Below are positions 3,524 through 33,574 of a stretch of 64,000 nt of DNA, in pieces; the first letter of the stretch is position 1, and every line of letters begins with the position of its first letter. The stretch covers positions 4,480,001 to 4,544,000 of the forward strand of contig OZ244065.1 of the NCBI GenBank assembly GCA_965215505.1, given 5' to 3'. The notes beneath the pieces are model-generated. The model made no database searches and was not told the origin of the DNA. It saw only the letters and a program-made list of their open reading frames with translations. The DNA is from Capsulimonadaceae bacterium (GTDB lineage: Bacteria > Armatimonadota > Armatimonadia > Armatimonadales > Capsulimonadaceae). The translations under genes and the position numbers were made by a program.

Positions 3524-4282
3524 TCAGTGTTTTTCCTCGCGGGCGCGGCCCAGGTAGACCTCGATAACGCGCGGATCGCTCTGGACGTCCGCCACCGAAC
3601 CCTCGCACAGCCACTTGCCCATGTGGAGGACGGTGACGGTCCGGGCATAGCGGCGCATGAAGTCCATGTCGTGCTCCACGACCAGGACCGAGCGGCGCGC
3701 GGCCATGCGGTGCAGCAGCTCGCCCGTGTGGTCGCGCTCGGGCCGGGTCATGCCCGCGATCGGCTCGTCCAGCAGCAGCAGCTTCGGCTCCTGCACCAGC
3801 AGCATCCCGATCTCCAGCCACTGCTTCTGGCCGTGCGCCAGAGTCCCGGCCGGTTCCCCTGCCCGCGCGGTCAGCCCGACCTCGTCCAGCGTGGCGGCGA
3901 TGCGCTCCTGGTGGCCCGAGGGGAGGGGGCGCAGCAGGCTGGCCGTGCCGTCGTGCAGGCCCACGGCGGCTTCCAGGTTCTCCCAGACCGTCAGGCTGCC
4001 GAAGACGGCCGGCGTCTGGAACTTGCGCCCGATGCCCTTCTGGACGCGCCGGTACTCGGGCCAGCGCCGGATGTCCGCCCCGCCGTCATAAAGCACCCGT
4101 CCGCTCAGGGGGCGCGTCTTGCCCGTGATGATGTCCAGCAGAGTTGTCTTGCCCGCCCCGTTCGGCCCGATCAGGAAGCGAAGCTCGCCCGGCTGCATGG
4201 AGAAGTTCAGGCCGTCCAGTGCCTTGAACCCGTCGAAGCTGACGGTCACGTCCTGCACGTCTATGACGGCGGGATGAGTCAT
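3524..4282 (-). CDS. urtD: urea ABC transporter ATP-binding subunit
   Basis: [37 protein letters not shown]. Confidence 0.93.
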
Positions 4283-5397
4283 AAGAGCACCTCCAGTCCG
4301 TCTTCGCGCTCGGCGGCGAGGGCGGGTGCCGGGGCGAGGACGGGCCGCCGGAAGCGGCCCAGCCAGCGGACGGCGTTCCGGGCGTACCCGGCCATCCCCT
4401 GCGGGAACAGCAGGACGGTCCCGATGAACAGCGCGCCCATGAAGTACTGCCACTTGTCCGGGAACGAGTCGTTGAAGCTGCTCTTGCCCCAGTTGACCAG
4501 CAGCGCCCCCAGGATGGGGCCGAGCAAAGTCGCGCGCCCGCCGACGGCCACCCAGATCACCATCTCGATGGAGGGCACGACGTCCATGGAGGCGGGGGAG
4601 ATGATGCCGACCTGCGGCACGAACAGCGCCCCGGCCAGCCCGGCCATGCCCGCCGACAGGGCGAAGGTCAGCGTCTTGATCGTCACCGGGTTATAGCCGA
4701 GGAACCGCACCCGGTTCTCGTCGTCGCGGGTCGCCACCAGCAGCCGCCCGAAGCGCGACCGGGTCAGGGCGCGCGCCAGCAGGTAGACACCGGCCAAAGA
4801 CACCACCGTGGCGAGGTAGAGCGCCTTCTGCGTCCCCGAATCGTTCAAGGAGCGGCCGAAGATCGTGGACAGGTTGGTGATGCCGTTGGTGCCCCCCGTG
4901 ACCCCCTGCTGGCCGATAAACAAAATGCTCGCCATAAGCGTCAGGGCCTGCGTGATGATGGAGAAGTAAACCCCCTGGATGCGGCTGCGGAAGATCAGGA
5001 AGCCGATCACGCCGGCCAAAGCCGCCGGCACCAGGACCGCGACCAGCAGGGCGAAGACGGGCGAGTGGAAGGGCCGCCAGAAGGCGGGCAGGACCGTCAT
5101 GCCGTTGTAATCCATGAAGTCCGGAATGTGCGTGCCCGACGCTTCCAGCTTCAGGTACATGGCGAACGCATAGCCGCCCACCCCGAAGAACAGCCCCTGA
5201 CCCAGACTGAGCATCCCGCCGTAGCCCCAGATCAGGTCCAGGCCGACGGCGATGATGGCGTAGGTCAGGAACTTGCCGAGCAGGTTCAGGCCGAAGTCGC
5301 CCAAGAAGTGTGGCACGATGACCGTCATCAGCAGCATAGCCGCCGTGAAGGAGAGCCAGAACCCGAGGCCGCTGCGGTGGCGATTGACAAAGAACAT
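4279..5397 (-). CDS. urtC: urea ABC transporter permease
   Basis: [39 protein letters not shown]. Confidence 0.93.
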
Positions 5398-6355: not shown

Positions 6356-7636
6356 CTACTTCTCCATCTCGGCCACCACCGTCGGTTTGCCCTGGGCAAG
6401 CCCCTTGGCCCAGGCAAGCTTGGTCAGGTACGGGTCCGGCTCGACCGGCTTGCCTGAGCTGGAAACCTCGTCGATCAGGCCGTCCGCGCGGAACTTGCCG
6501 ATGCGGGCCGTCTTCCAGGTGTGGTGGTTGCCGCCGTCTATCTTGACCATCCCCTCCGGCGCGGCGAACGTGACGCCGTCCGCCGCCGCCTTCACGGCGT
6601 CCACGTCCGTGGACTTCGCCTTCTCGACGGCCGCTTTCCACAGGTAGACCCCGAAGTAGCCCGCCTCGATGGGGTCATCAGTCACGCGGTCCGCCCCGTA
6701 CTTCGCCTTGTAGGCGGCGACGAACTTGGTGTTCTCCGGCGTCTTGGTGGTCTGGAAATAGTTCCAGGCGCACAGGTGGCCGGCGATGTTGGCCGGGCCG
6801 ATGCCGCGCGCCTCCTCTTCGGCGACGCTCACCGAGAGGACCGGCATCTGGGCCGCCGTGATGCCCGCCTCCTTGAGCTGCTTGAAGAAGGCGACGTTGC
6901 TGTCGCCGTTCAGGGTGTTGAAGACGGCGTCCGGGCGGGCGGCCTTGATCTTGCTGATGACCGTGCTGTACTCGGTCGCCCCCAGCGGCGTGTACTCCTC
7001 GCCCGCCAGAATCCCGCCCTGGGCGGCGAGCTGCGCCTTGATGATCTTGTTGGCGGTGCGCGGGAAGACGTAGTCCGAGCCGAGCAGGAAGATCTTCTTC
7101 TTGCCGATCTTGAGCAGATAGTTCACGCCCGGCACGATCTGCTCGGTCGGCTCCGCCCCGGTGTAGTAGATGTCCGGCGACGTTTCCAGCCCCTCATACT
7201 GGACCGGGTAGAACAGCAGGCCGTGCTGGCTCTCGACCACCGGCAGGACGGCCTTGCGGCTGGCGCTGGTCCAGCAGCCGAAGATCACGGCGACCTTGTC
7301 CTGCTGGAGCAGCTTCTTGGTCTTCTCGGCGAAGGTGGGCCAGTCGCTCGCGCCGTCCTCGGTCACCGGGACGATCTGCTTGCCCAGGACGCCGCCGCCC
7401 TTGTTGATCTCGTCAATCGCCATCATCTCGGCGTCCTTGACGCTCACCTCACTGATCGCCATCGTGCCGCTGAGGGAGTGCAGGATGCCGACCTTGATGG
7501 TGTTCGCGTCGTCGGCGGGGGCCGCCGAGGCCGTCGTGCCGCCGGGCGCGGCGGCGTCCTTTTGGCCGCAGCCGCTCAGGGCGGCCACGCCCAGCGCGGC
7601 GGAGGCCGCCAGGCCGAGCCAGGAATTCTTACGCAT
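6356..7636 (-). CDS. urtA: urea ABC transporter substrate-binding lipoprotein
   Basis: Lipobox [40 protein letters not shown]. Confidence 0.95.
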
Positions 7637-8964: not shown

Positions 8965-9199
8965 GTTTGTCCTGTCCTCCGGTGAAGTCTACACGGCTCA
9001 GGGCCGTGCCGTTCTCGGGTGGTGCGTCCTGCACGGGACTCATGCGAGAGTGCATGAATGGGACAAACGTCTGCGTTTGACGGGGCGGAAGGCCGAAGAG
9101 CGGCGGGTGAGGGATGCCAAAGAGTGGCAGGCGTGGGAGCGGACGGGAGGCGTCAATGCCGGTGGCTGCTTGGGTGTGCTCAACAGTGAGGTTGCTGCC

Positions 9200-9263: not shown

Positions 9264-9947
9264 TCAGTGGGTGTGCGCGTGGCTGTGCGGGATGCCGACG
9301 TAGGGCGCGTGGGCGTCAATGATGGACCGGCGCTCGCCCGAGGGCACGGCCAGCTTCCCCTCCAGCCAGCCGACCACGGCGTCCAGCCCCTCGCCGTCTT
9401 TGAGGTTCGTGAACAGGAAGGGCCGGTCAATACGCATGAGCCGCGCGTCGCGGTCCATGACGGCAAGCGACGCGCCGACCATCTCGGCCAGGTCCGTCTT
9501 GTTGATGACCAGCAGGTCCGAGCGCTGGACGCCCGGACCGCCCTTGCGCGGGACCTTGTCGCCGCCCGCCACGTCAATGACGTAGACCCAGACGTCCACC
9601 AGTTCGGGGCTGAACGCGGCGGAGAGGTTGTCGCCGCCGCTCTCGACGAAGATCAGTTCCAGCCCCGGCAGGGCGTCTTCCAGGTCGGCAATGGCCTCCA
9701 GGTTCATGGAGGCGTCCTCGCGGATAGCGGCGTGGGGGCAGCCGCCGGTCTCGACGCCCCGGATGCGCTCCAGGGGCAGCGTCCCCTGCCGCAGCAAAAA
9801 CTCGGCGTCTTCTTTGGTGTAGATGTCGTTGGTGACAACGGCGAGGCTATACTTCGCCGAGAGCCGGCGGCTCAGGCAATCCACAAGCGCCGTTTTGCCG
9901 CTCCCGACCGGCCCGGCGATCCCGACGCGATATGCTCTTTCAGTCAT
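9264..9947 (-). CDS. ureG: urease accessory GTPase UreG with His-rich tail
   Basis: [27 protein letters not shown]; ends HSHAHTH. Confidence 0.97.
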
Positions 9948-11010: not shown

Positions 11011-13698
11011 TCACCGCTGCGGCTCCCCGTCAGCCAGCGCGTATTCCATTGCCTGCTCCATCGTCATCGCCCGCCCCGCGTCCCAGGCGGCGACGAAGGC
11101 GGCCTCCCCCAGCGCCGCGCGCACGGCAGCCACCTGCGCGTCGATCTTCCCTTGTGCCGCCGGGGGAAAAGGGCTGCCGATGCTCGCGCGCAGGGCGGAG
11201 GCGGCGGCCCCCAACCGCGCCGCTCGTGACGCCTGGCTCTGCCCACAGGCCACGGCAGACATGCCTTCCAAATTACAGGCGATGCCCCGCTGGTCCCCTA
11301 GCTGACGATAGAGGGTCAGGCTCTCCTCGTGCAAGGCCCGCGCCCCTACGAAGTCACCCTGTTCAAAGGCCACAACCCCCAGGTTTATGAGCGATTCGGC
11401 GATGCCGTTCTGGTCCCCCAACTGCCGAGAGAGGGTCAGGCCCTCCTCCTGCAAGGCCCGAGCATCCGCCAAGTCGCCTTGCTGGTAGGCCACATTTCCC
11501 AGGTTGTTCAGCGCGTTGGCGACGCCCTGCTGGTCCCCCAACTGCCGAAAGAGGCTCAGGCCCTCCTCGTACAAGGCCCGCGCCCCCGCAAAGTCGCTCT
11601 GACCAGAGGCCACAACCCCCAGGTTGCCGAGCGAGCCGGCGATGCCCTGCTGGTCCCCCAACTGCCGCCGGATCGTCAGGCTCTCCTCGAACAAGGCCCG
11701 CGCCCCCGCAAAGTCGCCCTGCGCCCAGGCCAGAGCGCCTGCTCCGTTGAGCGCCTTGGCCCGTGCCGCCGATCCCTCCCGGACTCCCACGCCCTCTCTC
11801 CCTGCGCCCTCCGGCTTTATCCGCGCCAACGCCCGGCCCAGCCATTGACGACCCTCCGTAAAGTGGCCGCGCACCCACCAGAACCGCCACAGCGGCCCCG
11901 CCAGGCGCAGGCCATCCTCCCGACCGTCCGCCGACTGCTCCTCCCAAGCAAGGCTCGCCCGCAGGTTGTCGTGCTCCCGCTCCAGACGCCCAAGCCACGA
12001 CGCCTGCTCAGGACCCCGCAACTGGCTCTCCGCCTCCTCCGCCAGACCCAGGAACCAAGACGCCGACCGACCCTGCACCGCCGCCGCCTCCCCGCTCTCC
12101 CCCAGACGGTCCCCCGCGTACTGCCGCACTGTCTCCAGCAGTCGGTAGCGCCCCACATCCCCGTCTACCCCTTCTTCATACACCGCCAGCGACTTGTCTG
12201 CTAACCCCGTCAGCAGGTCCAGCACCTCCCACCCCTCGACGCCATCGCCCGAACAGACCCCCTCTGCCGCCGCCAGAGTCCAACCCCCCGCGAAGACCGA
12301 CAGCCGGCAGAGCAAGGTCTTCTCCGCCGCAGTCAGCAGGTCATACGACCAGTCAATCAAAGCCCGCAGCGTCTGCTGCCGGGGGAGCGTGTTCCTCGCA
12401 CCGCCCGTCAGCAGCCGGAACCTCTGGCCCAGCCGCGTGTTGATCTCCTCCACCGACAAAGACCGCACCCGCGCCGCCGCCAGTTCCAGGGCCAGCGGGA
12501 TGCCGTCCAGGCGGAAACACACCCGCGCCACGGCGGGCGCGTTCCCGTTTGTCACCGCGAACGACGGCCGCACGGCCTGGGCGCGCTCGATGAACAGGCG
12601 CACCGCCTCGAACTGAGACAGCGACTCGAGCGTCTGCGCCCGCTTGGGGTCCGGCATGGACAATGACGGGACGCGGTAGACCTGCTCGCCCGCCACGTTC
12701 AGCGGCTCGCGCGAGGAGGCCAGCAGGTGAACGTCTGGGCAAGCGCGCAGCAGGTCGGCGGTCAGGGAGGCACAGGCGGCGACCAGATGCTCGCAGTTAT
12801 CCAGGACGAGCAGGAGGCGCTTGGCCTTCAAGGCATTCACGAGCGTCTGCTGGATCGGCTTTCCGGCCTGCTCCTGGACGCCCAGCACGTCGGCGACGGC
12901 CTGGGGGACGAGGGCGGGGTCGGAGAGTGCAGCCAGCTCGACGAGCCAGACGCCGTCGCCGTCGCCCGTCAGCAGGTCGGCGGCCACTTGCAGCGACAGC
13001 CGCGTCTTGCCCGCCCCGCCCGGCCCTACCAGAGTCAGCAGGCGCGTCCGGCCCAGCAGCGCCTCGACCTCCTCCACCTGTTTCTCGCGCCCGATGAAAC
13101 TCGTGGGCTGCTGGGGCAGGTTGTTGGGCAGGTCCGGGTTGTCCAGCGAGCGCAGGGGCGGGAAATCGGCGGCGAGCGCGGGGTGGAGAAGCTGGAAGAC
13201 CTGTTCGGGGCGTCCGAGGTCCTTGAGCCGGTGCTGGTTCAGGTCGCGCAGGGTGGCACCCGGCGGTAGCGCGTCCTGGACCAGTTCGCGTGTGGCCGTG
13301 GAGAGCAGCACCTGGCCGCCATGCCCCGCCGCCATCAGCCGGGCGACGCGGTTGAGGGGCGGTCCGAAGTAGTCGCCGCCGCGCTCTTCGGCGGCCCCGG
13401 TGTGCAGGGCCATCCGCACGGAAAGTGGCGTGGGCATCTCCCACGGCTCGGCGGCGAGTGCGAGTTGGGCGGCGAGGGTGGCCTCCAGCGCATCGTTTGC
13501 GGTGGGGAAGGCGGCGCAGAAGGCATCGCCGACGGTCTTGAAGACGTAGCCTTCATGGTCCTCGATATTGCTGCGAAGGAGGTCTTCGTGGCGGGCGAGG
13601 GCTTGGCGCATGGCCTCGGGGCGCTGCTCCCAGAGCTTCGTGCTGCCCTCGATGTCGGTGAACAGGAACGTGACGGTGCCGGTAGGCGGGAGAGGCAT
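11011..13698 (-). CDS. class III nucleotide cyclase - STAND ATPase - TPR protein
   Basis: [58 protein letters not shown]-terminal TPR repeats. Confidence 0.9.
11281..11730. repeat. intragenic ~120-bp tandem repeats (TPR units), about 3.5 copies
   Basis: Near-identical blocks 'tggtcccc(c/t)a..ctg' and 'aaggcccg' recur with a 120-bp period (11281, 11401, 11521, 11641). Confidence 0.9.
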
Positions 13699-26518: not shown

Positions 26519-27556
26519 TTATTCGGCACCCAGGGGGGTGTCCGGGTCGGTCGTCGCCGTGCGGGACGCGCGCGGGGTCAGTGGTTTTCCTACCGCCCCG
26601 CCCGTCAGCGTCTCGACGACCAGGCGGTTGAAGGCCTGCGCCTGCTCGTCGTGCGGGAGCAGTCCGCTCTTGTCGAAGACGGTCAGCTCGGCGCGGGCGT
26701 TGGCGGCGAGAAACGCCTCGGCGTCGGAGAGCGGCGTCAGCCGCGCCTCCCGGCCCCAGATGATCCGCACGGCCTTCTGCGTCAGTTTGGGGAACGTCTC
26801 CGCCACGCTCAGGTTCAGCAGGCCGCTGAAGAAGGACGGCGGCGCGTTCTGCGAGCCGTACTGGTGGGTCGCCGTCGAGTAGTGGTCGAGCAGGGCGTCG
26901 TCCACATGGGACGGGTCAAAATACGTCTCGTTCATCAAATAGTGGCGCAGGCCCGGCAGTGACGTGATCGCGTTATGGATCGTTGTCCCCAGCAGGGGTG
27001 CATGGGTGAGCGCGTAGACCGCCGCCGTGCGCGCGTCGGGCGCTTTGGCGAGGTGCCGGAAGCCGGTCGGGCAGACCAGTACCAGGCTGTGAACGGCGTC
27101 GGGGAGGTCGGCGGCCACCTGGACGGCATAGGCGCAGGCGAGCGAGGAGGCGACGATGTCGCACGGCTCCTTGACCACTTCACGCAGGAACTGGCCGAGC
27201 TGCTCGACATACTGGGCGGCGGTGTAACGGACGCGCGGCTTGTCCGACAGCCCAAAGCCCAGCCAGTCGGGGGCGTAGACCAGGCCGTGTTCCGAGAGCG
27301 CGTCGAAGTTCTTGCGCCACTCGTAGCCGGACGCGCCCGCATAGATGCCGTGCAGCAGGACGACAGGGCGGCCGCCCTCGGCGGGTTTCCCCTGGCGCGT
27401 GTAGAAGATGTCGCCATACGGGCCGGGCCAGAAGCGGCCTTCGCCGCCGAGCGGGTTGCCGAGCGCCTTGGCCCGGCCAAAGACGGCGTTGTTGGCGGCG
27501 GCCAGGGCGGTCGCCCCCGCGCCGGCCCAGAGCAGCGTCTTGAGGGTCTTGTTCAT
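26519..27556 (-). CDS. alpha/beta hydrolase
   Basis: VLLHGIYAGAS, PDWLGFGLSDKP, ASSL nucleophile elbow, LPHDE. Confidence 0.9.
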   Translation of the reverse strand: MNKTLKTLLWAGAGATALAAANNAVFGRAKALGNPLGGEGRFWPGPYGDIFYTRQGKPAEGGRPVVLLHGIYAGASGYEWRKNFDALSEHGLVYAPDWLGFGLSDKPRVRYTAAQYVEQLGQFLREVVKEPCDIVASSLACAYAVQVAADLPDAVHSLVLVCPTGFRHLAKAPDARTAAVYALTHAPLLGTTIHNAITSLPGLRHYLMNETYFDPSHVDDALLDHYSTATHQYGSQNAPPSFFSGLLNLSVAETFPKLTQKAVRIIWGREARLTPLSDAEAFLAANARAELTVFDKSGLLPHDEQAQAFNRLVVETLTGGAVGKPLTPRASRTATTDPDTPLGAE

Positions 27557-28353
27557 CGGGTGGGGACCTCGCGCGTTGTGATGGGGCTAGTATACCCAAG
27601 AACCCACCCCGGCGCAAGCGCGGCGCTTGCGCCGGGGTGGGTTCCAAAATGCCCCGCCAGAGCGTCCCGGAACGCCCCCGGCCCCGCCCCGTCCCCCGCC
27701 GCCCCCAACGCGGCGAAGCGCCAGTATTCGGTCGCGAAGAAGAGCAGCGGGCGGTCGCCGCCGGTCTGGGCGGCGACGGCGAGGCCCAGACGGAACTCGT
27801 TCCCCTCGGCGGTCGGGCGGCCCGCAGGCATGGCGTAGACGTCCAGCGGCCTGCCGCCGGGGAGCGCGTAAGTGGCGTGGAACAGGGTCGTGAGCGTGGA
27901 GGGTAGGACGGTCTTCCGGTCACGCGCGAGCCGCCGGTAGGGGCCGAGCGTTGGCGGGAAAACGTCATCGAGCGTGGCGGCGGCGACCGGCAGGGTCGTC
28001 AGCGCGGCGGCCGGGGGGACCGCAGGCGCGGCGTGGGTGATGGCGGCAGGCGCGGCGTGGCGGTGACGGCTACGGGCGCCGCTGACGATCAGGACGATCC
28101 CCAGGATCAGCGTGACGAGGGTGATCCCCACAACGGCAAGGCACGCGCCGAAGGACTGCTCTTTGAACCGCTCATCGTCGGCGGCCTTCACCTGCTGGAA
28201 CTCCGGCGATCGCTCCACCTCCGCGCGGGCGGCGGTCAGCTCCTCCGCCGTGGCGTCGTCCACGGTGACCAGGACGGCGAAGCACTCCGGGCAGGTGGTG
28301 GATTTGAGGTTCGGGTACTGCGCGCCGCAGCGCGGGCAGACTTTGGCGGGCAT
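27553..28353 (-). CDS. membrane protein with N-terminal zinc ribbon
   Basis: CPRC...CPEC, one TM helix; leaderless start (TACAAT 6 nt upstream). Confidence 0.7.
   Translation of the reverse strand: MPAKVCPRCGAQYPNLKSTTCPECFAVLVTVDDATAEELTAARAEVERSPEFQQVKAADDERFKEQSFGACLAVVGITLVTLILGIVLIVSGARSRHRHAAPAAITHAAPAVPPAAALTTLPVAAATLDDVFPPTLGPYRRLARDRKTVLPSTLTTLFHATYALPGGRPLDVYAMPAGRPTAEGNEFRLGLAVAAQTGGDRPLLFFATEYWRFAALGAAGDGAGPGAFRDALAGHFGTHPGASAALAPGWVLGYTSPITTREVPTR
27600..27644. repeat. perfect 22-bp inverted repeat
   Basis: GAACCCACCCCGGCGCAAGCGC-G-GCGCTTGCGCCGGGGTGGGTTC. Confidence 0.9.
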
Positions 28354-28397
28354 GGGCCTATTGTACCCCGCCCGGCGTCACAGAACTGCCCTTGATG

Positions 28398-28952
28398 TCA
28401 GGGCTTCAGCGTCTCGCGTCCCGGTTTCCAGTCGGAGGGGCAAAGTCCGCCTGATTGAACGGCTTGCAGGACGCGCAACGTCTCCTCCACACTGCGCCCA
28501 ACATTAAGGTTGTTGATCGTTGCGTGTTGAACGATGCCCTCAGGGTCCACGATGAACAAGCCGCGCAGAGTCAGCCCCGCATTTTCAACCAGAACCCCGT
28601 AGTCCGCCGCGACTTGGTGTGTTCGGTCAGCCAGGAGCGGAAAGCGGAGGCCGGAAATGCCGTTCGCCTCGCGTGGGATTGCTACCCATGCTTTGTGACA
28701 ATGCTCACTGTCGGTACTGGCCCCAAGGATATCACAGTCCAGTTCCAGGAACTCGTCAGCCCGGTCCGAGAGCGCCGTGATCTCCGTGGGGCAGATGTGC
28801 GTGAAGTCCGAGGGATACCAGAACAGCACCAGCCACCGGCCCACATAGTCGCTGAGGCTGATGGAGCGGAACGGCGCAAGTGGGGGAAGGGTAGGGTCGT
28901 AGGCTTGCGCCGTGAAAGGAGCGGCGGGCTGACCGACTTGAAGGCTGGTCAT
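28398..28952 (-). CDS. 2-Cys peroxiredoxin (AhpC/Prx1 type)
   Basis: YPSDFTHICPTE, LRGLFIVDP, GRSVEETLR, GLCPSDW. Confidence 0.93.
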   Translation of the reverse strand: MTSLQVGQPAAPFTAQAYDPTLPPLAPFRSISLSDYVGRWLVLFWYPSDFTHICPTEITALSDRADEFLELDCDILGASTDSEHCHKAWVAIPREANGISGLRFPLLADRTHQVAADYGVLVENAGLTLRGLFIVDPEGIVQHATINNLNVGRSVEETLRVLQAVQSGGLCPSDWKPGRETLKP

Positions 28953-28999
28953 GGTAATGTGGCTTCCTCTCAGACGTGGTGACGTATCAACAACAGCCA

Positions 29000-29692
29000 C
29001 TACGGGTACTCAGGCGCTTCATAGGAGAACAGCCCCGTCAAATCAAATGAAGACCCCGAAAGGCTCTTCACATGTCCATCCGCCATCAAGACATTGTAAC
29101 GGCGGTAAGGAGACTCCTTTTCCCCATGCCAGGCACCACAGCCATCGTAAAATAGCGGAATCTCGGACGGCCCATATTCCGGGTAGTGTTCCGCCGCGAT
29201 GTCATAAAGGTTGTAGGCTGTTAGACTCGACACCGTGGCGTGTGCTAAAACAATTTTTGTTGTGTAGTAGTAGCTGGTGCCGAAAGTCTCAAAAGAACTG
29301 TTCCTTGCATCCAGCGGATAATAAGAAAACAGATCGAAACTCGAAAATCCCGCGTCTGACGGACATCTCCAAGCATTCGGAGAGTTGACATACGGCTGCA
29401 ATACGACGTTGATTGGCTTCATCTGAGAGACGAGAAGCCAGTCTTCCCCGCCCACGGTCTGCCAGTAGTTTGTTTTTAGATCAAACGGATCGCCACCAAG
29501 GGGGTAAAAGTCGTCATTGTCTTGGGAATACAGGCTGCAAGCCATCCCCAGGTTCCGGAGGTTCGATAGGCAAGCCGTGCGCCGCCCTGCTTCTCTGACG
29601 GACTGAAACACCGGGAAAATCATTGCGGCTAGAATAGAGACGATCCCTATTACTATCAGCAACTCGACAAGAGTGAACCCTTTTCGTTTCAT
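29000..29692 (-). CDS. prepilin-type N-methylation / DUF1559 (H-X9-DG) protein
   Basis: KGFTLVELLIV...FPVF...CLSNLRNLG; WRCPSD; H...NVLMADGHVK. Confidence 0.9.
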   Translation of the reverse strand: MKRKGFTLVELLIVIGIVSILAAMIFPVFQSVREAGRRTACLSNLRNLGMACSLYSQDNDDFYPLGGDPFDLKTNYWQTVGGEDWLLVSQMKPINVVLQPYVNSPNAWRCPSDAGFSSFDLFSYYPLDARNSSFETFGTSYYYTTKIVLAHATVSSLTAYNLYDIAAEHYPEYGPSEIPLFYDGCGAWHGEKESPYRRYNVLMADGHVKSLSGSSFDLTGLFSYEAPEYP

Positions 29693-29696
29693 GACC

Positions 29697-30149
29697 TTAA
29701 TCCTGTTGCATCAGTCTTTTCAACGAGTTCTCCGCCGTCTTCAAGCCAAGCCCGCCTGCGGCTCGGCTACGCAGTTTTCCGGCGGCATCAAAGAGAAAAT
29801 AGCTCGGCCAAAGCCCTGATGTTTGGAAGCGGTCCCCAATCGTGTGATCATTGTCTATGGCGCAGGGACCATTAATCCCTAGCTCTTCCGCGACCACTTT
29901 CACCTTCGCTATCTCTGTGTCCTCTGGGGAACGGGGCTGATGTATCGAAACCAAATACAATCCTTGCTCCCGGTATGCCGCCAATAGTTCTTTGAGCCGA
30001 GGCATGTTCATTTTGCAGATCGGGCAAGAGATAGCCCAAAACTGAAACAGTGTCGGGCGCTCAATTAGGTCTTGACTCGCCACACTACGATTCAGCCACT
30101 CCGTTGCTCCTTCCAGTGAAGGAATTGATGTACCAACTTGCAAAGCCAA
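29697..30149 (-). CDS. thioredoxin-fold redoxin (TlpA-like)
   Basis: FWAISCPIC, SIHQPR, WPSYFLFD; TTG start. Confidence 0.88.
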   Translation of the reverse strand: MALQVGTSIPSLEGATEWLNRSVASQDLIERPTLFQFWAISCPICKMNMPRLKELLAAYREQGLYLVSIHQPRSPEDTEIAKVKVVAEELGINGPCAIDNDHTIGDRFQTSGLWPSYFLFDAAGKLRSRAAGGLGLKTAENSLKRLMQQD

Positions 30150-30170
30150 AACCGCTCTCCACTGAAAGAC

Positions 30171-30797
30171 TCATTGCGAACTGATATGCTTGATCGCGCT
30201 CGCGGCCCTGCGGCGAACCACAACGTCAGTATCGTTCAATAAAGGCGTCAGGTATGGGAGCGCTCGTGTATCCTTCAACTGGTTGAAAACTCCCATAGAC
30301 CGTAATTTGTCTGTTCTGTTTGAATGCATTATGAACGTTGCCATGGTCTGAAATACCACTTCTTTTTGAGAGGGTGTATAGCTCTTGACTTCCTGCAACG
30401 CCTCAAAGAAATTTGCCCGCCTGATGGATGAGACAGTAACATCTTGGCTGGGTCCTGGGCTTTTCAACATCTGAATGAGCCAGTTCAAATCTGTGTCAGA
30501 GATAGTGCCGTTCTTCGCGCTTTCTAGAATATGTCCCCTCTTAACGTAGTCATCTTTATACATCACCCCTTCACTCTCGTTGATCTTGGCTTGTTCAGCA
30601 GGAGGCATATCCGAAAAATTGACTGGGTGGCGATGTAGAGATTGCACTGAGACATGGTTACTGCGGAGGGTAAGCAGGCCAAACACGACACAGAGGGCGA
30701 TAAAACCAATTAGTAGAATTGCCGGCCTTGAAATTTTCAATGCAAAAGTCCTCGACGCCCAGGCAGTCATGAAACTGATGTCACACGGGCTTTCCAT
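30171..30797 (-). CDS. membrane-anchored HEAT-repeat protein
   Basis: N-terminal TM helix; C-terminal DTRALPYLTPLLNDTDVVVRRRAASAI; start uncertain. Confidence 0.75.
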   Translation of the reverse strand: MESPCDISFMTAWASRTFALKISRPAILLIGFIALCVVFGLLTLRSNHVSVQSLHRHPVNFSDMPPAEQAKINESEGVMYKDDYVKRGHILESAKNGTISDTDLNWLIQMLKSPGPSQDVTVSSIRRANFFEALQEVKSYTPSQKEVVFQTMATFIMHSNRTDKLRSMGVFNQLKDTRALPYLTPLLNDTDVVVRRRAASAIKHISSQ

Positions 30798-30913
30798 TCA
30801 GACTGAAATCTGCGTCTTCAACGAAGCAACCGTCCGCCTGCACGGACTGATGAAGTAGATATGGACTCCGGCCCGAATGGAAAGCCTGTGTGACATCAGC
30901 CACCCATATGGCA

Positions 30914-31381
30914 TTAGCCAGTAGGAGAAACTCCTCCCCCACAGTAATTGTCCCCCACTCTGGCTTGGCATAGTAGGCCAGCTTGAGTGAGATTGCCATC
31001 TGGAGTTGTTCCAAAACATCTGCCGCAGGCATTTATTACACACTGATCGCAGGTTCCACCTTCGATTGGATGTGTACGAGGTCCTCCCGGTTGTGCTGGG
31101 CATCCTGAGCAGTTGAAGCCTAATTGTGCGTCGGAACATCCATCGGCGTCGCAGACCGGATTCGCGAACGCGATTCCCGCCTGCTGGAACTCCTTAGCGA
31201 TCGCCTGAGCCACCCTGTTGTCACCCGCCATGCGCTCCATGCGTTGGCCGACGAGACGTGCAAGATCGTCCACGCTGAACATGGACAGCGCGGCGATGCC
31301 CGCCCCAAAGCCCAGTTTCCGGAGGGCCGCTCGGCGCGTCATCTTCTCGCGCTCCACCCGCCGCGCGGTGTCGGCGTCCAT
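30914..31381 (-). CDS. twin-arginine-leader, Cys-rich secreted peptide precursor (possible longer start at 31432 is interrupted by TAA)
   Basis: TRRAALR plus hydrophobic stretch, AFA cleavage-like site, then an ~82-aa core with 10 Cys. Confidence 0.75.
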   Translation of the reverse strand: MDADTARRVEREKMTRRAALRKLGFGAGIAALSMFSVDDLARLVGQRMERMAGDNRVAQAIAKEFQQAGIAFANPVCDADGCSDAQLGFNCSGCPAQPGGPRTHPIEGGTCDQCVINACGRCFGTTPDGNLTQAGLLCQARVGDNYCGGGVSPTG

Positions 31382-31418
31382 TGCCTTGGTTTTGGCAGGT
31401 TAATCCGCCTTCGTTTGC

Positions 31419-31637
31419 TCATTGTCCGGCATGTGTGTTCTCCTCAGATGATCCCTCTGATGCTTCGATGAGTGCTTCGCCTAACACGGCTTTTGCCTGC
31501 GCCTGTATCTCTTGCAAGGCCAAGACGCGGGCCACGACCAGTCCGACCAGACCTTCAATCCGGTCGCGCTCTTCCATCTTGTCGATGACGGCCTGGGCAA
31601 CGAGGTCAACGAACTCGTCACGGTCTTCGATACGCAT
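31419..31637 (-). CDS. small helical hypothetical protein
   Basis: GAGGAG RBS; MRIEDRDEFVDLVAQAVIDKMEE...; first gene of the island operon. Confidence 0.7.
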   Translation of the reverse strand: MRIEDRDEFVDLVAQAVIDKMEERDRIEGLVGLVVARVLALQEIQAQAKAVLGEALIEASEGSSEENTHAGQ

Positions 31638-31695
31638 GGGCGCTCCTCGCGCGGTGGTTTGGGTGGCGACCCTCGCATTTCGTCCGGCATCTCTT

Positions 31696-31767
31696 GGGAG
31701 GGAGGATGTCAGAGGGAGGGAGGATGTCAGAGGGAGGGAGGATGTCAGAGGGAGGGAGGATGTCAGA
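31696..31767. repeat. 18-bp tandem repeat x4 (GGGAGGGAGGATGTCAGA)
   Basis: Four exact copies, directly downstream of a minus-strand TATAAT (31771-31776). Confidence 0.97.
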
Positions 31768-31915
31768 GACATTATACAGCACAATTTCGAGTTTTGATGT
31801 TAAGAAAATGTTAAATCCGCGATTTATTTTTGGACCGAGAGCGTCGGCTATTTTTGGCGTCGAGCCACGGCCCGGCGGCTTGAATTTGCCGGCCCGTTCT
31901 GTTATGATGGTGGGC

Positions 31916-33574
31916 ATGAAGGCAAGTCTTTTCCTGACGCCGCTGCTGGCGATCATCGGCCTCTGTGTGGCCCCGCGCGCCAACGCGGACCCCTCCGGCC
32001 CGTTCACCTGGGGCGAAACCACGCACATGGCAGACGCCGGCTGGGGGCGCATGACGCCGCTCAAAGACGGCCGCTGGCTGGGCGTCAACGCGCTCTATCC
32101 CCATCCCAACAGTATCCTGCAACTGGAGATCAGCGCCGACAAGGCGCGGACCTGGACGCCCCTTGCCACCGTCGCCGAGCCGGGGCGCAACCTGGACAAC
32201 GGCGAGGTCATCCAACTGCCCAATGGCGACCTGCTGCTGACGGGCCGGTCGGTCGTGGACGGGCCGGGCCGGCCCCGCTCGTACCACCTGCCGGTCTACC
32301 GAAGTGCGGACGGCGGCAAGACCTGGACCTTCCAGAGCCAGATAGACACCTCGGAGCCGCCGCCGGCCCAAGCGCGGCACCCCTCGGTCGGGCTGTGGGA
32401 GCCGCACTTCTTTTTTCTTCCTGACGGCAAACTCGCCTGTGCCTATGCCAACGAGAAACCCGCGGTCGCCACGCCCGCCTACAGCCAGATCGTCTCGGAA
32501 AAGGTGTCGCCGGACGAAGGGAAGACGTGGGGGCCGGAGATCGTCCTGGCCGCCCAGGTCGGCGGCGGCGGGCAGCGGCCCGGAATGCCCGTCTTGACCC
32601 GCCTGTCGAACGGCCAGTACATGGCCGTGTATGAAGTCGTCGGGGTGGGGGACGCCGACGTCTACTTCAAGACCTCGCGCGACGGCGTCACCTGGCCGCC
32701 CGGCATCGGCGTCCGTATTCCCTGCCAGCACGCGGGGCCGTGGGTGACGACGCTGACGAGTGGCCGCGTGGTCGTCACTTCCTGCGAGAACCAGATCTCC
32801 ACCAGCGACGACGACGGGGCGACCTGGCTCCTGGCGACCCCACCCGCCTGGCCCATCGGCCACGTCCTCACCTGGCCCGCCCTCTACCAGACCGCCCCGG
32901 ACACGCTGGCCGCGATGAACACCTATCACGGCGTCAACATCCGGTGGGGGAAGATCATCCCCGTCAAACCCTGGCCCGCCCTCTTCACCTCGGATTTCGC
33001 GGCGGGGGATGACGATGGCTGGACCCGGTACGGCGGCCACACCGGGTTCGCCGGCGGGGCTTACCTCCTGAACAACGCCGGCACGACCGGCAAGTCGCTG
33101 ACGGGCGATCCCGCCTGGCACGACGGGACCTTGGAGGCCGACGTGATGCTGACCTCGGCGGGGAACGCAGGCCTGATGTTCCGCACGACGAACGCCGACC
33201 TCTCCGGCCCGGACTCGTTCTCCGGGTACTACGTCGGCCTGGACTCGACCGGCAGCGTCTTCCTCAGCCGCTCGGTGAATAATTATACCGAACTTGCGCG
33301 CGCCCCCCTGGACGTGCCGCTCAACACCTGGCAGCATGTGAGAATCGTCCTGCGCGGGGCTACCCTCGCCGTGTATGTGGGCGACAGCAAGACGCCCACC
33401 CTGCGCGTCTCGGACAGCTTTTTCCTTCGTGGCCAGATCGGCGTCCGCGCCCACAACTGCAACGCCGCGTTCCGGCGGGTGCGGTTCCAGAGCGCGGCGG
33501 CTGTATCGCCTGGGGGCGGGCGTCGGCGTGAAGGGCAGGCACGGGGGCCTGCCCCTACGTTTCGTGGGCGGTAG
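31916..33574 (+). CDS. secreted BNR/Asp-box (sialidase-like) protein with C-terminal DUF1080-like lectin domain
   Basis: Signal peptide; Asp-boxes SADGGKTW, SPDEGKTW, SRDGVTW, SDDDGATW; GLWEP; WQHVRI, GQIGVR; TTGAAT-N17-TATGAT leaderless promoter. Confidence 0.85.
   Translation: MKASLFLTPLLAIIGLCVAPRANADPSGPFTWGETTHMADAGWGRMTPLKDGRWLGVNALYPHPNSILQLEISADKARTWTPLATVAEPGRNLDNGEVIQLPNGDLLLTGRSVVDGPGRPRSYHLPVYRSADGGKTWTFQSQIDTSEPPPAQARHPSVGLWEPHFFFLPDGKLACAYANEKPAVATPAYSQIVSEKVSPDEGKTWGPEIVLAAQVGGGGQRPGMPVLTRLSNGQYMAVYEVVGVGDADVYFKTSRDGVTWPPGIGVRIPCQHAGPWVTTLTSGRVVVTSCENQISTSDDDGATWLLATPPAWPIGHVLTWPALYQTAPDTLAAMNTYHGVNIRWGKIIPVKPWPALFTSDFAAGDDDGWTRYGGHTGFAGGAYLLNNAGTTGKSLTGDPAWHDGTLEADVMLTSAGNAGLMFRTTNADLSGPDSFSGYYVGLDSTGSVFLSRSVNNYTELARAPLDVPLNTWQHVRIVLRGATLAVYVGDSKTPTLRVSDSFFLRGQIGVRAHNCNAAFRRVRFQSAAAVSPGGGRRREGQARGPAPTFRGR

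Follow-up and report, generated by a model that had tools for sequence, protein, structure and literature searches.

Introduction

The toxins of bacteriocin and polymorphic toxin-immunity systems combine a conserved N-terminal region for trafficking with an active C-terminal region that varies. A small, variable gene directly downstream follows the toxin type, and several cassettes can occur in one genome together with orphan and decayed immunity-like copies; bacteriocin operons also have a stem-loop after the structural gene. Comparable features, of which the link between downstream gene and core type is tentative, recur in a family of gene cassettes, one member of which we analysed here in a Capsulimonadaceae bacterium (Armatimonadota; assembly GCA_965215505.1, contig OZ244065.1, positions 4,480,001 to 4,544,000). 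This whole stretch of 64,000 nucleotides (nt) is hereafter called the window. The cassette comprises six genes, which encode a small helical protein (g1), a precursor with a conserved leader and a hypervariable Cys-rich core, a variable protein with a predicted membrane segment (gene 3), a thioredoxin-fold protein with a CPxC motif (the redoxin), a prepilin-like protein and a 2-Cys peroxiredoxin. It differs from the bacteriocins and polymorphic toxins in that it has no double-glycine leader, no C39/ABC exporter, no markers of type V, VI or VII secretion and no known toxin or immunity domain. Its leader is instead a twin-arginine-type motif with a 45-residue extension, and its peroxiredoxin, CPxC redoxin and prepilin-like helpers are not seen in those systems.

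Precursor families of RiPPs (peptides synthesised by the ribosome and modified post-translationally) resemble the cassette in that one leader serves many unrelated cores and several precursors occur per genome, as described in the accessible part of PMC2890512. Unlike these families, the cassette has no conserved maturase, and its cores are long (median 80 residues) with mostly even numbers of Cys. With the Cys-rich peptide families of animals, such as the conotoxins and mussel MgCRP-I (PMC4558851, in the sections available), the cassette has only its logic in common and no homology; the precursor is bacterial, its signal is of the twin-arginine rather than the endoplasmic reticulum type, and its Cys framework varies (0-18 Cys). 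Peroxiredoxin 4 (PRDX4) oxidises proteins of the protein disulfide isomerase (PDI) family (PMC3744794, PMC4138195), and disulfide-bonded proteins made in the engineered cytoplasm of Escherichia coli (CyDisCo) were exported by the Tat (twin-arginine translocation) route (PMC9995818), as far as the available parts of these papers report. The cassette likewise places a 2-Cys peroxiredoxin beside a CxxC protein and combines redox proteins predicted to be cytoplasmic with a presumed multi-disulfide client that carries a twin-arginine motif, but the electron direction may be that of a standard peroxide-reducing couple. We know of no natural bacterial example of a module for folding followed by Tat export.

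The MauA/MauD pair of methylamine dehydrogenase systems consists of an exported small Cys-rich protein with a long twin-arginine leader and the product of a thioredoxin-fold accessory gene. An atlas search with the precursor matched unnamed clusters and, as a lead, methylamine dehydrogenase light chain clusters (PF02975, score 0.93), and the redoxin matched the MauD model TIGR02661 at E 9e-4 (18.7 vs 188.6 bits); we regard both as leads only. In contrast to the Mau system, no other mau genes are present and the redoxin has neither signal nor anchor. The precursor was rejected as a methylamine dehydrogenase light chain, since it gave no PF02975 match in Pfam at E ≤ 0.01 and its cores are unalignable between types; a protein with such hypervariable cores cannot be an enzyme subunit such as MauA. 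The prepilin-like protein shares the class III methylation motif, the DUF1559 region and the D-G motif with the DUF1559/H-X9-DG proteins of Planctomycetota, Verrucomicrobiota and Armatimonadota and with pseudopilins; it differs in that its subgroup is fixed in a peptide cassette, and the H-X9-DG model is passed by 0.3 bits and with its second half only. The logic of the cassette is known from toxin-immunity systems and Cys-rich peptide families, but its parts differ in the exporter, the domains and the three helper genes. In an abstract-level search of the literature we found no description of the family or of the cassette.

A recurrent gene cassette in Armatimonadota

The list of open reading frames (ORFs) of the 64-kb window contained six co-directional minus-strand ORFs at 28398-31637. 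In the order g1, precursor, gene 3, redoxin, prepilin-like gene and peroxiredoxin gene they were separated by 37, 116, 21, 4 and approx. 47 nt, and no terminator-like site was found within the cassette by a terminator scan. The overall GC content was 0.542 in the cassette and 0.681 in the flanks, with a dip to 0.45-0.55 at 29000-31000 compared with 0.68-0.73 on either side. We read the six genes as one operon-like cassette of an unnamed Armatimonadota family. An initial annotation, made from the letters of the window alone, had described six tightly packed minus-strand genes with a GC content below that of the flanks, and all of the ORFs as well as the GC drop were confirmed. It had extended the cassette to 31776, whereas the coding part ends at 31637 and a non-coding repeat occupies 31696-31768.

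A word-indexed search returned 68 relatives of the precursor, none of them with a Pfam domain or a meaningful name. An exhaustive profile search gave 298 precursor clusters (50% identity) at E ≤ 0.001 and 272 at E ≤ 1e-10. Genomes were then scanned with the precursor alignment, using one genome per species; 14 loci were returned and 13 were counted, all in metagenome-assembled genomes of Armatimonadota (Armatimonadales, Capsulimonadaceae/Capsulimonadales and Abditibacterium). When the 13 loci were searched with the window proteins by tblastn, g1 was detected in 12, the redoxin in nine, the peroxiredoxin in nine and the prepilin-like gene in ten (including one fragment); in L006 and L011 the sequence stops shortly after the precursor, and later genes cannot be scored there. 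The order of the last three genes differs among the loci, with the redoxin gene first in L008, L010 and L012. Up to three cassettes were present per genome, and one complete chromosome holds L003, L007 and L008; in L002 two precursors are each followed by their own gene 3. None of the genes flanking the cassette in the window recurred in the 13 loci (tblastn). The presence of the same genes together in 13 other loci thus puts the gene set far beyond chance. The genes that the initial annotation had joined into one candidate system do co-occur in these Armatimonadota loci, and the lack of co-occurrence that it had named as a refutation was not observed; both the 72-residue g1 and the precursor leader belong to recurring families, whose genes are neighbours in 12 of the 13 loci. 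Its view that no named system has this composition also held, in that Pfam, NCBIfam and PADLOC name neither the precursor nor g1.

The cassette is divided into conserved and variable parts, as seen when pairs of cassettes were scored as similar at BLASTP E ≤ 0.001. Among 15 cassette precursors the leader was similar in 105 of 105 pairs and the core in 3 of 105. g1 was similar in 28 of 28 pairs (median identity 58.7%), the redoxin in 36 of 36 (62.5%), the pilin in 45 of 45 (44%) and the peroxiredoxin in 21 of 21 (66.5%), whereas gene 3 was similar in only 5 of 78 pairs.

The GC content of the cassette was 0.53-0.58 in nine of nine loci measured and lower than that of the flanks each time, with the widest gap in the window. 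This fits a module that moves as a unit between Armatimonadota genomes. At the edges of the window cassette, tRNA and repeat scans of the window showed no tRNA, integrase or flanking repeat, and the rest of the window contained neither another copy of the precursor nor a gene for a GspE-type ATPase, an HprK-like protein or a radical S-adenosylmethionine (SAM) protein.

Signs of cassette decay and turnover were observed in three loci. In L009 (9606-11518) the precursor lacks the R-R region, an extra gene-3-like copy replaces g1 and the pilin is a 55-residue fragment; in L012 (10430-10920) gene 3 is interrupted by an in-frame stop; and in L013 (11690-12167) the redoxin is split over two frames. 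In L007 an AbiEii-type nucleotidyltransferase toxin gene (12555-13316) is inserted between the pilin and peroxiredoxin genes. The fourteenth locus, L014 from Verrucomicrobiia, was rejected as a member, as it matched through the signal region only and represents a different small-peptide family. Its region at approx. 4100-4800 holds two or more small proteins in tandem, each with a signal of the twin-arginine type, an A-x-A at the ordinary short distance and a brief core rich in Cys; they are shorter, without the helical extension, and not accompanied by redox or pilin genes.

Leader and core of the precursor

The precursor gene (30914-31381, minus strand) encodes 155 residues, in which a leader with T-R-R-A-A-L-R is followed by a Cys-rich core. 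In the leader (residues 1-73; 31163-31381) the twin-arginine-type motif is followed by a weakly hydrophobic segment of 13 residues and then by a predicted helix of 30 residues, which ends in A-F-A. The core (residues 74-155; 30914-31162) is 82 residues long, contains 10 Cys with three CxxC, and is of a rare type. The initial annotation had listed the same motif, the long leader ending in A-F-A and a core of approx. 82 residues with its 10 Cys and three CxxC, and all of this was found again in the translation.

The leader is built up in a fixed order from a variable N-terminus, E-x-E-K-L-T-R-R-A-A-L-R-K-L-G, a Gly/Ala-rich hydrophobic segment, V-D-D-L-A-R and the predicted 30-residue helix. Across the precursor family the first approx. 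75-90 residues are conserved and the sequence beyond them is not alignable. R16 and R17 were invariant in 26 of 26 aligned precursor sequences; among 196 family members the residue before the first R-R was T in 112 and S in 48, where the pattern sometimes caught an earlier R-R. In the window T-R-R-A-A-L-R-K conforms to the Tat motif S/T-R-R-x-hydrophobic-hydrophobic, and the 13-residue Gly/Ala/Ser-rich segment directly after it was judged by eye to be a short, weakly hydrophobic h-region. The AlphaFold model of the precursor places leader helices at residues 3-22, 27-33 and 37-67. A strict leader/core pattern parsed 162 of the 196 members and left 34 unparsed. The leader ended in A-x-A in 138 of the parsed members, in V-x-A in 15, in S-x-A in four, in T-x-A in one and in A-x-G in four, which gives A/V/S/T-x-A at the -3/-1 positions in 158 of 162.

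Core lengths ranged from 9 to 291 residues with a median of 80. The cores contained 12.7% Cys, 10.2% Gly and 1.5% His, and hydrophobic and charged residues were scarce. Cys per core varied from 0 to 18, with a framework that differs among types, and 241 CxxC motifs were counted in 159 cores. The number of Cys was even in 149 of the 162 parsed members, and in 63 of 68 in the first set of relatives. This even number favours all-disulfide cores over metal binding or thioethers to other residues. The core type of the window was otherwise found only in P0001-P0003, where all 10 Cys are kept and the loops vary.

The AlphaFold model of the precursor had a mean predicted local distance difference test (pLDDT) score of 62.1, with 67-79 in blocks of the core (residues 81-140). 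A Foldseek search of this only moderately confident model against PDB gave no matches at E ≤ 0.001, and sequence searches of PDB with the precursor or the g1 profile gave nothing below E 0.36; neither protein had a Pfam, NCBIfam, PADLOC or PDB match. PADLOC detected no defence-system family in the cassette, its sole match being HEAT-ARM at E 0.0066.

Relatives of the precursor begin approx. 17-30 residues further upstream (M-P-D-N-E-Q...). In the window this extension (31382-31432) is broken by a TAA stop 18 nt before ATG 31381, and the window precursor therefore begins at an internal Met, 13 residues ahead of the R-R.

Gene 3 and its variation with the core

Gene 3 (30171-30797, minus strand) encodes 208 residues with one 20-residue N-terminal hydrophobic segment and a HEAT-like C-terminus. 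It had been proposed at first to be a membrane-anchored HEAT protein. The membrane segment was found, whereas the HEAT matches remained just under the Pfam cut-offs (HEAT 21.7 vs 23.5 bits, HEAT_2 21.8 vs 27.7 bits) and covered only the C-terminal approx. 40 residues; the relative in L005 exceeds the HEAT_2 cut-off (29.4 vs 27.7 bits). The position of gene 3 is taken by HEAT-like proteins in the window, L004 and L005, by TPR proteins in L007, L008 and L011, by a PD40 propeller in L013 and by proteins of no family in L001, L002 (two), L003, L009 and L010. An N-terminal hydrophobic segment was present in 12 of 13 gene-3 copies, several of them with a lipobox-like x-x-G-C, which should place the protein at the inner membrane, on its outer face, and so at the point of arrival of an exported peptide.

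Gene 3 is the only other gene of the cassette that varies as the core does. L001 and L003 have a common core (70% identity) and a common gene 3 (74%), and the same holds for L009 and L012 (core 68%; gene 3 78% by tblastn, the L012 copy having an in-frame stop). The third pair with a shared core, L002a/L006, offers no gene 3 for comparison, as L006 stops at the contig edge. Among 5.8 billion protein clusters the window gene 3 had only three homologues (73, 55 and 57% identity) and the window core type likewise only three, and each of these two sets has a member on a contig 205,123 nt long. These observations suggest that gene 3 encodes a type-specific partner of the core, putatively an immunity protein.

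The helper genes

g1 (31419-31637, minus strand) starts with ATG, with GAGGAG 6 nt upstream, and encodes 72 residues without a signal peptide. Its family comprises 92 proteins including the window's own, all of the same size and unnamed or 'hypothetical' save for one that is evidently mislabelled. Residues 1-42 are nearly invariant in the family alignment, and the protein is predicted to form one long helix (AlphaFold: a single helix at 2-62, mean pLDDT 84.5). The gene lies directly upstream of the precursor gene in 12 of 13 loci and often overlaps its start, which suggests coupled translation. Pfam, NCBIfam and PDB profile searches showed no PqqD-like or other recognition domain on g1, and an atlas search with it gave no usable match. 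A complex prediction from alignments of g1 (1-50) with the leader (1-76) gave a score of 0.00 and a mark of 0.32 and counts neither way. We infer that g1 may be a chaperone for the leader.

The redoxin (29697-30149, minus strand) is a CPIC thioredoxin-fold protein without a signal peptide, and its matches to AhpC-TSA (44.2 bits) and Redoxin (35.4 bits) are both over the Pfam cut-off. A CxxC was present in 10 of 10 copies, as CP(I/V/L)C in nine and CGYC in one. When the first 30 residues were judged by eye, none of the 10 copies had a hydrophobic N-terminus; this signal-less N-terminus sets the redoxin apart from the exported ResA/DsbE/TlpA proteins, which are nearest by sequence. Its NCBIfam scores were far under cut-off (ResA 52.5 vs 170 bits). 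The peroxiredoxin (28398-28952, minus strand) likely starts at ATG 28952, as in relatives, while the ORF runs on to GTG 29000. It matched AhpC-TSA with 121.9 bits (E 1.9e-35), has no signal peptide, and kept the peroxidatic C-P-T-E motif and the C-terminal resolving Cys in seven of seven copies examined. With scores under the equivalog cut-offs (PrxU 160.9 vs 270, AhpC 142 vs 272 bits), it is by sequence a typical member of the 2-Cys (AhpC/Prx1) group with no named equivalog. The CPIC redoxin and the 2-Cys peroxiredoxin of the initial annotation were thus both supported, the former by its CPIC motif and the thioredoxin fold assigned by Pfam, the latter by the AhpC-TSA match and both Cys motifs. 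As the two proteins have no export signal, any redox action on the precursor would take place in the cytoplasm before export and not in the periplasm. The dedicated redox maturation suggested earlier is retained insofar as the redox genes are conserved with the cassette, but it would be cytoplasmic rather than periplasmic. In P0061 and P0063 approx. 40 residues of the N-terminus of the CPxC redoxin, including the active site, are fused ahead of the precursor leader; these fusions are either further evidence of the adjacency of redoxin and precursor, or a product of recombination or a frameshift.

The prepilin-like protein (29000-29692, minus strand) has a class III signal, a DUF1559 N-terminal region and a D-G C-terminal motif. 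It passed N_methyl (33.3 vs 21.2) and DUF1559 (37.2 vs 23.3), the latter over the first 41 of 268 profile positions only. TIGR04294 (H-X9-DG) was reached with 19.3 vs 19 at model positions 10-22 only, i.e. the D-G half, and no His was seen at the nominal H-X9-DG spacing when the window protein was read. The H-X9-DG prepilin-like protein described at first was therefore recovered with its prepilin motif, DUF1559 region and D-G half, but not with its His. A GspE/PilB-type ATPase gene adjoins the cassette in 4 of 13 loci, divergently in L006 and L007 and upstream in L008 and L012. The prepilin-like gene may plausibly be connected with a step that involves a type IV filament or resembles type II secretion.

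Proposed pathway and alternative explanations

With moderate confidence we interpret the cassette as encoding a secreted peptide that is polymorphic and rich in disulfides, together with its cognate immunity partner and a dedicated cytoplasmic thiol-redox handling. We are more confident of one part of this picture, that of a probably exported, hypervariable, disulfide-rich protein. In the proposed pathway g1, the gene of which adjoins or overlaps that of the precursor, would handle or regulate the precursor in the cytoplasm. There the peroxiredoxin and the CPxC redoxin would set the thiol state of the core, most likely as a disulfide relay driven by peroxide, in which the core is folded ahead of export; the peroxiredoxin-to-PDI and CyDisCo/Tat precedents are the basis for this proposal. 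The folded protein would then be exported via its twin-arginine motif, and the conserved part would be removed at or near the A-x-A. The prepilin-like protein could tie the product to a type IV filament or a type II secretion-like machine, by which it would cross the outer membrane or be displayed. Gene 3, tethered outside on the membrane and specific for the core type, would bind or neutralise its cognate, presumably toxic core as an immunity protein. A bolder extension, which we offer tentatively and regard as rather unlikely in full, is a self-contained natural module that makes multi-disulfide mini-proteins in the cytoplasm. In it, oxidation would pass from peroxide to the peroxiredoxin, the CPxC protein and the core while g1 holds the leader, and Tat, the prepilin-like adaptor and the type IV filament machine would follow; the module would move between Armatimonadota genomes, diversify like a venom family and carry its own immunity for each type.

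If the favoured interpretation is true, a phylum that has been little studied contains a large library of disulfide-rich mini-proteins that diversifies fast, in at least 298 clusters and with most cores unrelated. The disulfide-rich scaffolds of animals, such as conotoxins and knottins, are prized as stable and specific binders. The cassette also poses the question of how 5-9 disulfides are folded with helpers in the reducing cytoplasm and an export motif for folded proteins (Tat). A natural oxidation relay from a peroxiredoxin to a thioredoxin-fold protein, coupled to Tat, would be new for bacteria and useful for the production of disulfide proteins. One subgroup of the DUF1559 prepilin-like family, which is very large and unexplained, would for the first time be given a functional context by the prepilin-like gene.

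Several points weigh against this interpretation. The A-x-A lies approx. 45 residues past the hydrophobic segment, which is not the canonical signal-peptidase position, and a Tat cleavage site as normally defined is lacking. No NCBIfam family, the Tat-signal model included, was returned for the precursor at E ≤ 0.01, though a short signal model easily escapes such a search, and the N-terminus of the precursor could be a membrane anchor that is not cleaved. None of the cores showed a known toxin domain or fold. The association of core and gene 3 gave a Fisher p = 0.064 for the 13 cassettes with intact gene 3, and four distant gene-3 similarities (25-28% identity, HEAT-like group) occurred without core similarity. 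The evidence for co-variation is thin, as it consists of two pairs and one shared contig size of 205,123 nt. The initial annotation had taken the gene after the precursor to encode an immunity or receptor protein; what stands of this is a variable gene that follows the core type in the two testable pairs of a small sample. The redox pair may be an ordinary peroxide-reducing couple, which keeps the precursor reduced or merely detoxifies peroxide. L006/L007 and L008/L012 are orthologous pairs, so that the ATPase adjacency amounts to approx. two independent cases and is a weak link to secretion. The genome survey was limited to one genome per species and found 14 loci, and some cassettes were incomplete or degenerate (L009 decayed, L013 without peroxiredoxin, L010 without pilin). 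The functional picture as a whole is derived from sequence.

The leader could be a recognition sequence for RiPP enzymes that are encoded elsewhere or in some of the loci, with the Cys engaged in thioethers or other cross-links. A conserved leader joined to a hypervariable core is a RiPP hallmark, and this is what the pairwise comparison of leaders (105/105) and cores (3/105) showed. Candidate enzymes were also present: an HprK-related kinase-like gene stands after the pilin in 4 of 13 loci, with weak matches to TIGR04352/TIGR04355 far below cut-off, L003 also has a PF14907 nucleotidyltransferase, and in L002 a gene like those of radical SAM/SPASM maturases lies on the opposite strand, 1.3 kb upstream of the cassette. 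The radical SAM gene, however, occurs in 1 of 13 loci, two further same-strand ORFs come after it, and nothing ties it to the cassette. No known maturase family was found in the window and none is conserved with the cassette over the window and the 13 loci, in agreement with the initial annotation, which had recognised no RiPP-modifying enzyme. Moreover, g1 carries no PqqD-like or other recognition domain, cores of approx. 80 residues with predicted helices are large for RiPPs, and the even Cys number in 149 of 162 members is predicted by all-disulfide products but not by cross-links from Cys to other residues. We therefore consider a RiPP improbable. There is also little probability in an exported thiol or metal buffer, i.e. 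a sacrificial antioxidant or chelator whose redox genes belong to the same oxidative-stress or metal response, even though a peroxiredoxin with a thioredoxin-fold protein is a classic pair of peroxide-defence genes and the cores are rich in Cys (12.7%) and in CxxC (241 in 159 cores). Examples of exported Cys-rich proteins are the copper storage proteins, which leave by Tat, and the 'bufferins', Cys-rich peptides with a signal peptide. For a chemical buffer a type-specific partner would be superfluous, but gene 3 appears to vary with the core type; nor does a buffer account for several different cassettes per genome, for a Cys framework that is fixed within one core type while the loops vary, or for Cys that are even in number in 149 of 162 members beside only 1.5% His, and no metal-handling gene is conserved in the cassette. 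The metal-binder option of the initial annotation is disfavoured by the hypervariable cores, the low His content and the even Cys counts.

A variable peptide paired with a variable membrane-tethered partner would also be expected if the core were an identity tag or signal and gene 3 its membrane receptor, in kin recognition, adhesion or a pilus-associated process. The prepilin-like gene in 10 of 13 loci, the type IV filament ATPases nearby in 4 of 13 and the slippage-prone repeats in the promoter region, which are typical of surface-variation loci, agree with this explanation. No gene-3 protein has a signal-transduction domain, no kinase or regulator is conserved in the cassette, and the gene-3 proteins are short helical-repeat proteins; the orphan gene-3-like copy in L009 and the gene-3 pseudogene in L012 are more like the turnover of immunity genes. 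Such a recognition or signalling pair seems unlikely to us. The precursor might finally not be secreted but stay in the envelope behind an uncleaved anchor, as a redox-active or structural protein maintained by the redox genes. The distance of the A-x-A from the hydrophobic segment, too large for canonical signal peptidase I, and the positive residues before the segment with D-D after it, which fit an N-in anchor, speak for this, and the look-alikes in the atlas include, as a lead only, the methylamine dehydrogenase light chain clusters (0.93), which are exported Cys-rich subunits. Against it, the core of a resident envelope protein with a constant task should be alignable between copies, whereas 102 of 105 pairs are not; PF02975 is not matched, and redox proteins without export signals cannot act on an anchored periplasmic domain. 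We regard a resident envelope protein as very unlikely.

Regulatory features

Upstream of g1 a perfect tandem repeat of 18 nt in 4.1 copies (GGGAGGGAGGATGTCAGA on the plus strand) is located at 31696-31768. It is preceded on the minus strand by a -10-like hexamer TATAAT (31771-31776), which was read from the sequence directly before the array, and by two direct TTAACA-containing motifs (31798-31816) as a putative regulator site or -35 region. The repeat copies are 100% identical; read on the coding strand, the unit is rich in pyrimidines and has a CCUCC core that resembles an anti-Shine-Dalgarno sequence. Repeats upstream of g1 were also observed in L001 (19 nt; 7389-7470, running into a masked run of N), L003 (20 nt; approx. 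9640-9700), L006 (19 nt; approx. 9584-9622) and L007 (18 nt; approx. 9558-9630), in 2 to more than 4 perfect copies. Related units of 18-20 nt at the same place in four other loci indicate that the repeats are non-coding; they are probably the start of the 5' untranslated region. The hexamers TATACT, TACACT and TAAACT stand directly before the repeats among L003, L006, L001 and L007, and comparable paired motifs are found at the same place in these four loci. A sigma-70 scan reported no minus-strand promoter at the TTAACA/TATAAT region, and its promoter role is proposed from the sequence. The RNA fold of the 5' repeat region was no different from that of shuffles (z -0.17). The repeats could control expression in a manner prone to slippage, or could mimic an anti-Shine-Dalgarno sequence.

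Two of the cassettes with the redoxin gene first, L008 (approx. 9120-9165) and L010 (approx. 9110-9145), have a promoter-like TTGACA / TACAAT (or TAGAGT) pair with 10-11 G in a spacer of approx. 19 nt. A poly-G spacer between promoter elements is the classic layout of phase-variable promoters. As both the tandem repeats and the poly-G are slippage-prone, variable expression is possible.

A long RNA hairpin with 36-nt arms (30775-30899, minus strand) lies between the precursor and gene 3 and encloses the start codon of gene 3 (30797). Its folding energy was -78 kcal/mol (z -8.36), and none of 200 shuffles folded as well. Stem-loops were also detected after the precursor in L001, L002a, L003, L004, L008 and L009, here against mononucleotide shuffles only. 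With a hairpin after the precursor, the precursor would tend to be made in large excess over the downstream products, an arrangement found in many bacteriocin operons. The only Rfam match of the hairpin, mir-607, was below threshold and on both strands (43.8 vs 94 bits) and was rejected.

Neighbouring genes

The HprK-related kinase-like gene (P-loop) was located at 12827-16389 in L003, 3002-3289 in L004, 12217-13341 in L012 and 12878-13801 in L013; possibly it is a tailoring module that is optional. After it, in L003, come an insertion sequence element (helix-turn-helix and DDE_3) and the PF14907 nucleotidyltransferase. The radical SAM/SPASM protein of L002 (6452-8374, minus strand) has 640 residues and is nearest to maturases of Cys-rich peptides (CefB 126, TIGR04463 114 bits; below cut-off).

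In the window the peroxiredoxin gene is followed by a high-GC gene (27553-28353) that does not recur with the cassette in the other loci. Its product of 266 residues belongs to no family and has a single membrane segment and, at the N-terminus, a C-x-x-C pair like that of a zinc ribbon. TACAAT sits 7 nt ahead of its ATG (28354-28397 region), and the gene may thus be transcribed from a promoter of its own, into an mRNA almost without a leader. A perfect 22-nt inverted repeat with a 1-nt loop (27600-27644) is present close to the 3' end of the ORF; it may be a terminator, or the ORF may be shorter than listed. On the other side of the cassette a divergent gene (approx. 31922-33574, plus strand) encodes a signal-peptide protein with BNR/sialidase-like and 3-keto-disaccharide hydrolase / concanavalin-like domains. 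Its listed start at 31694 is probably wrong, since the ORF would run through the repeat array, and a promoter-like site is present near this gene at 31880-31908.

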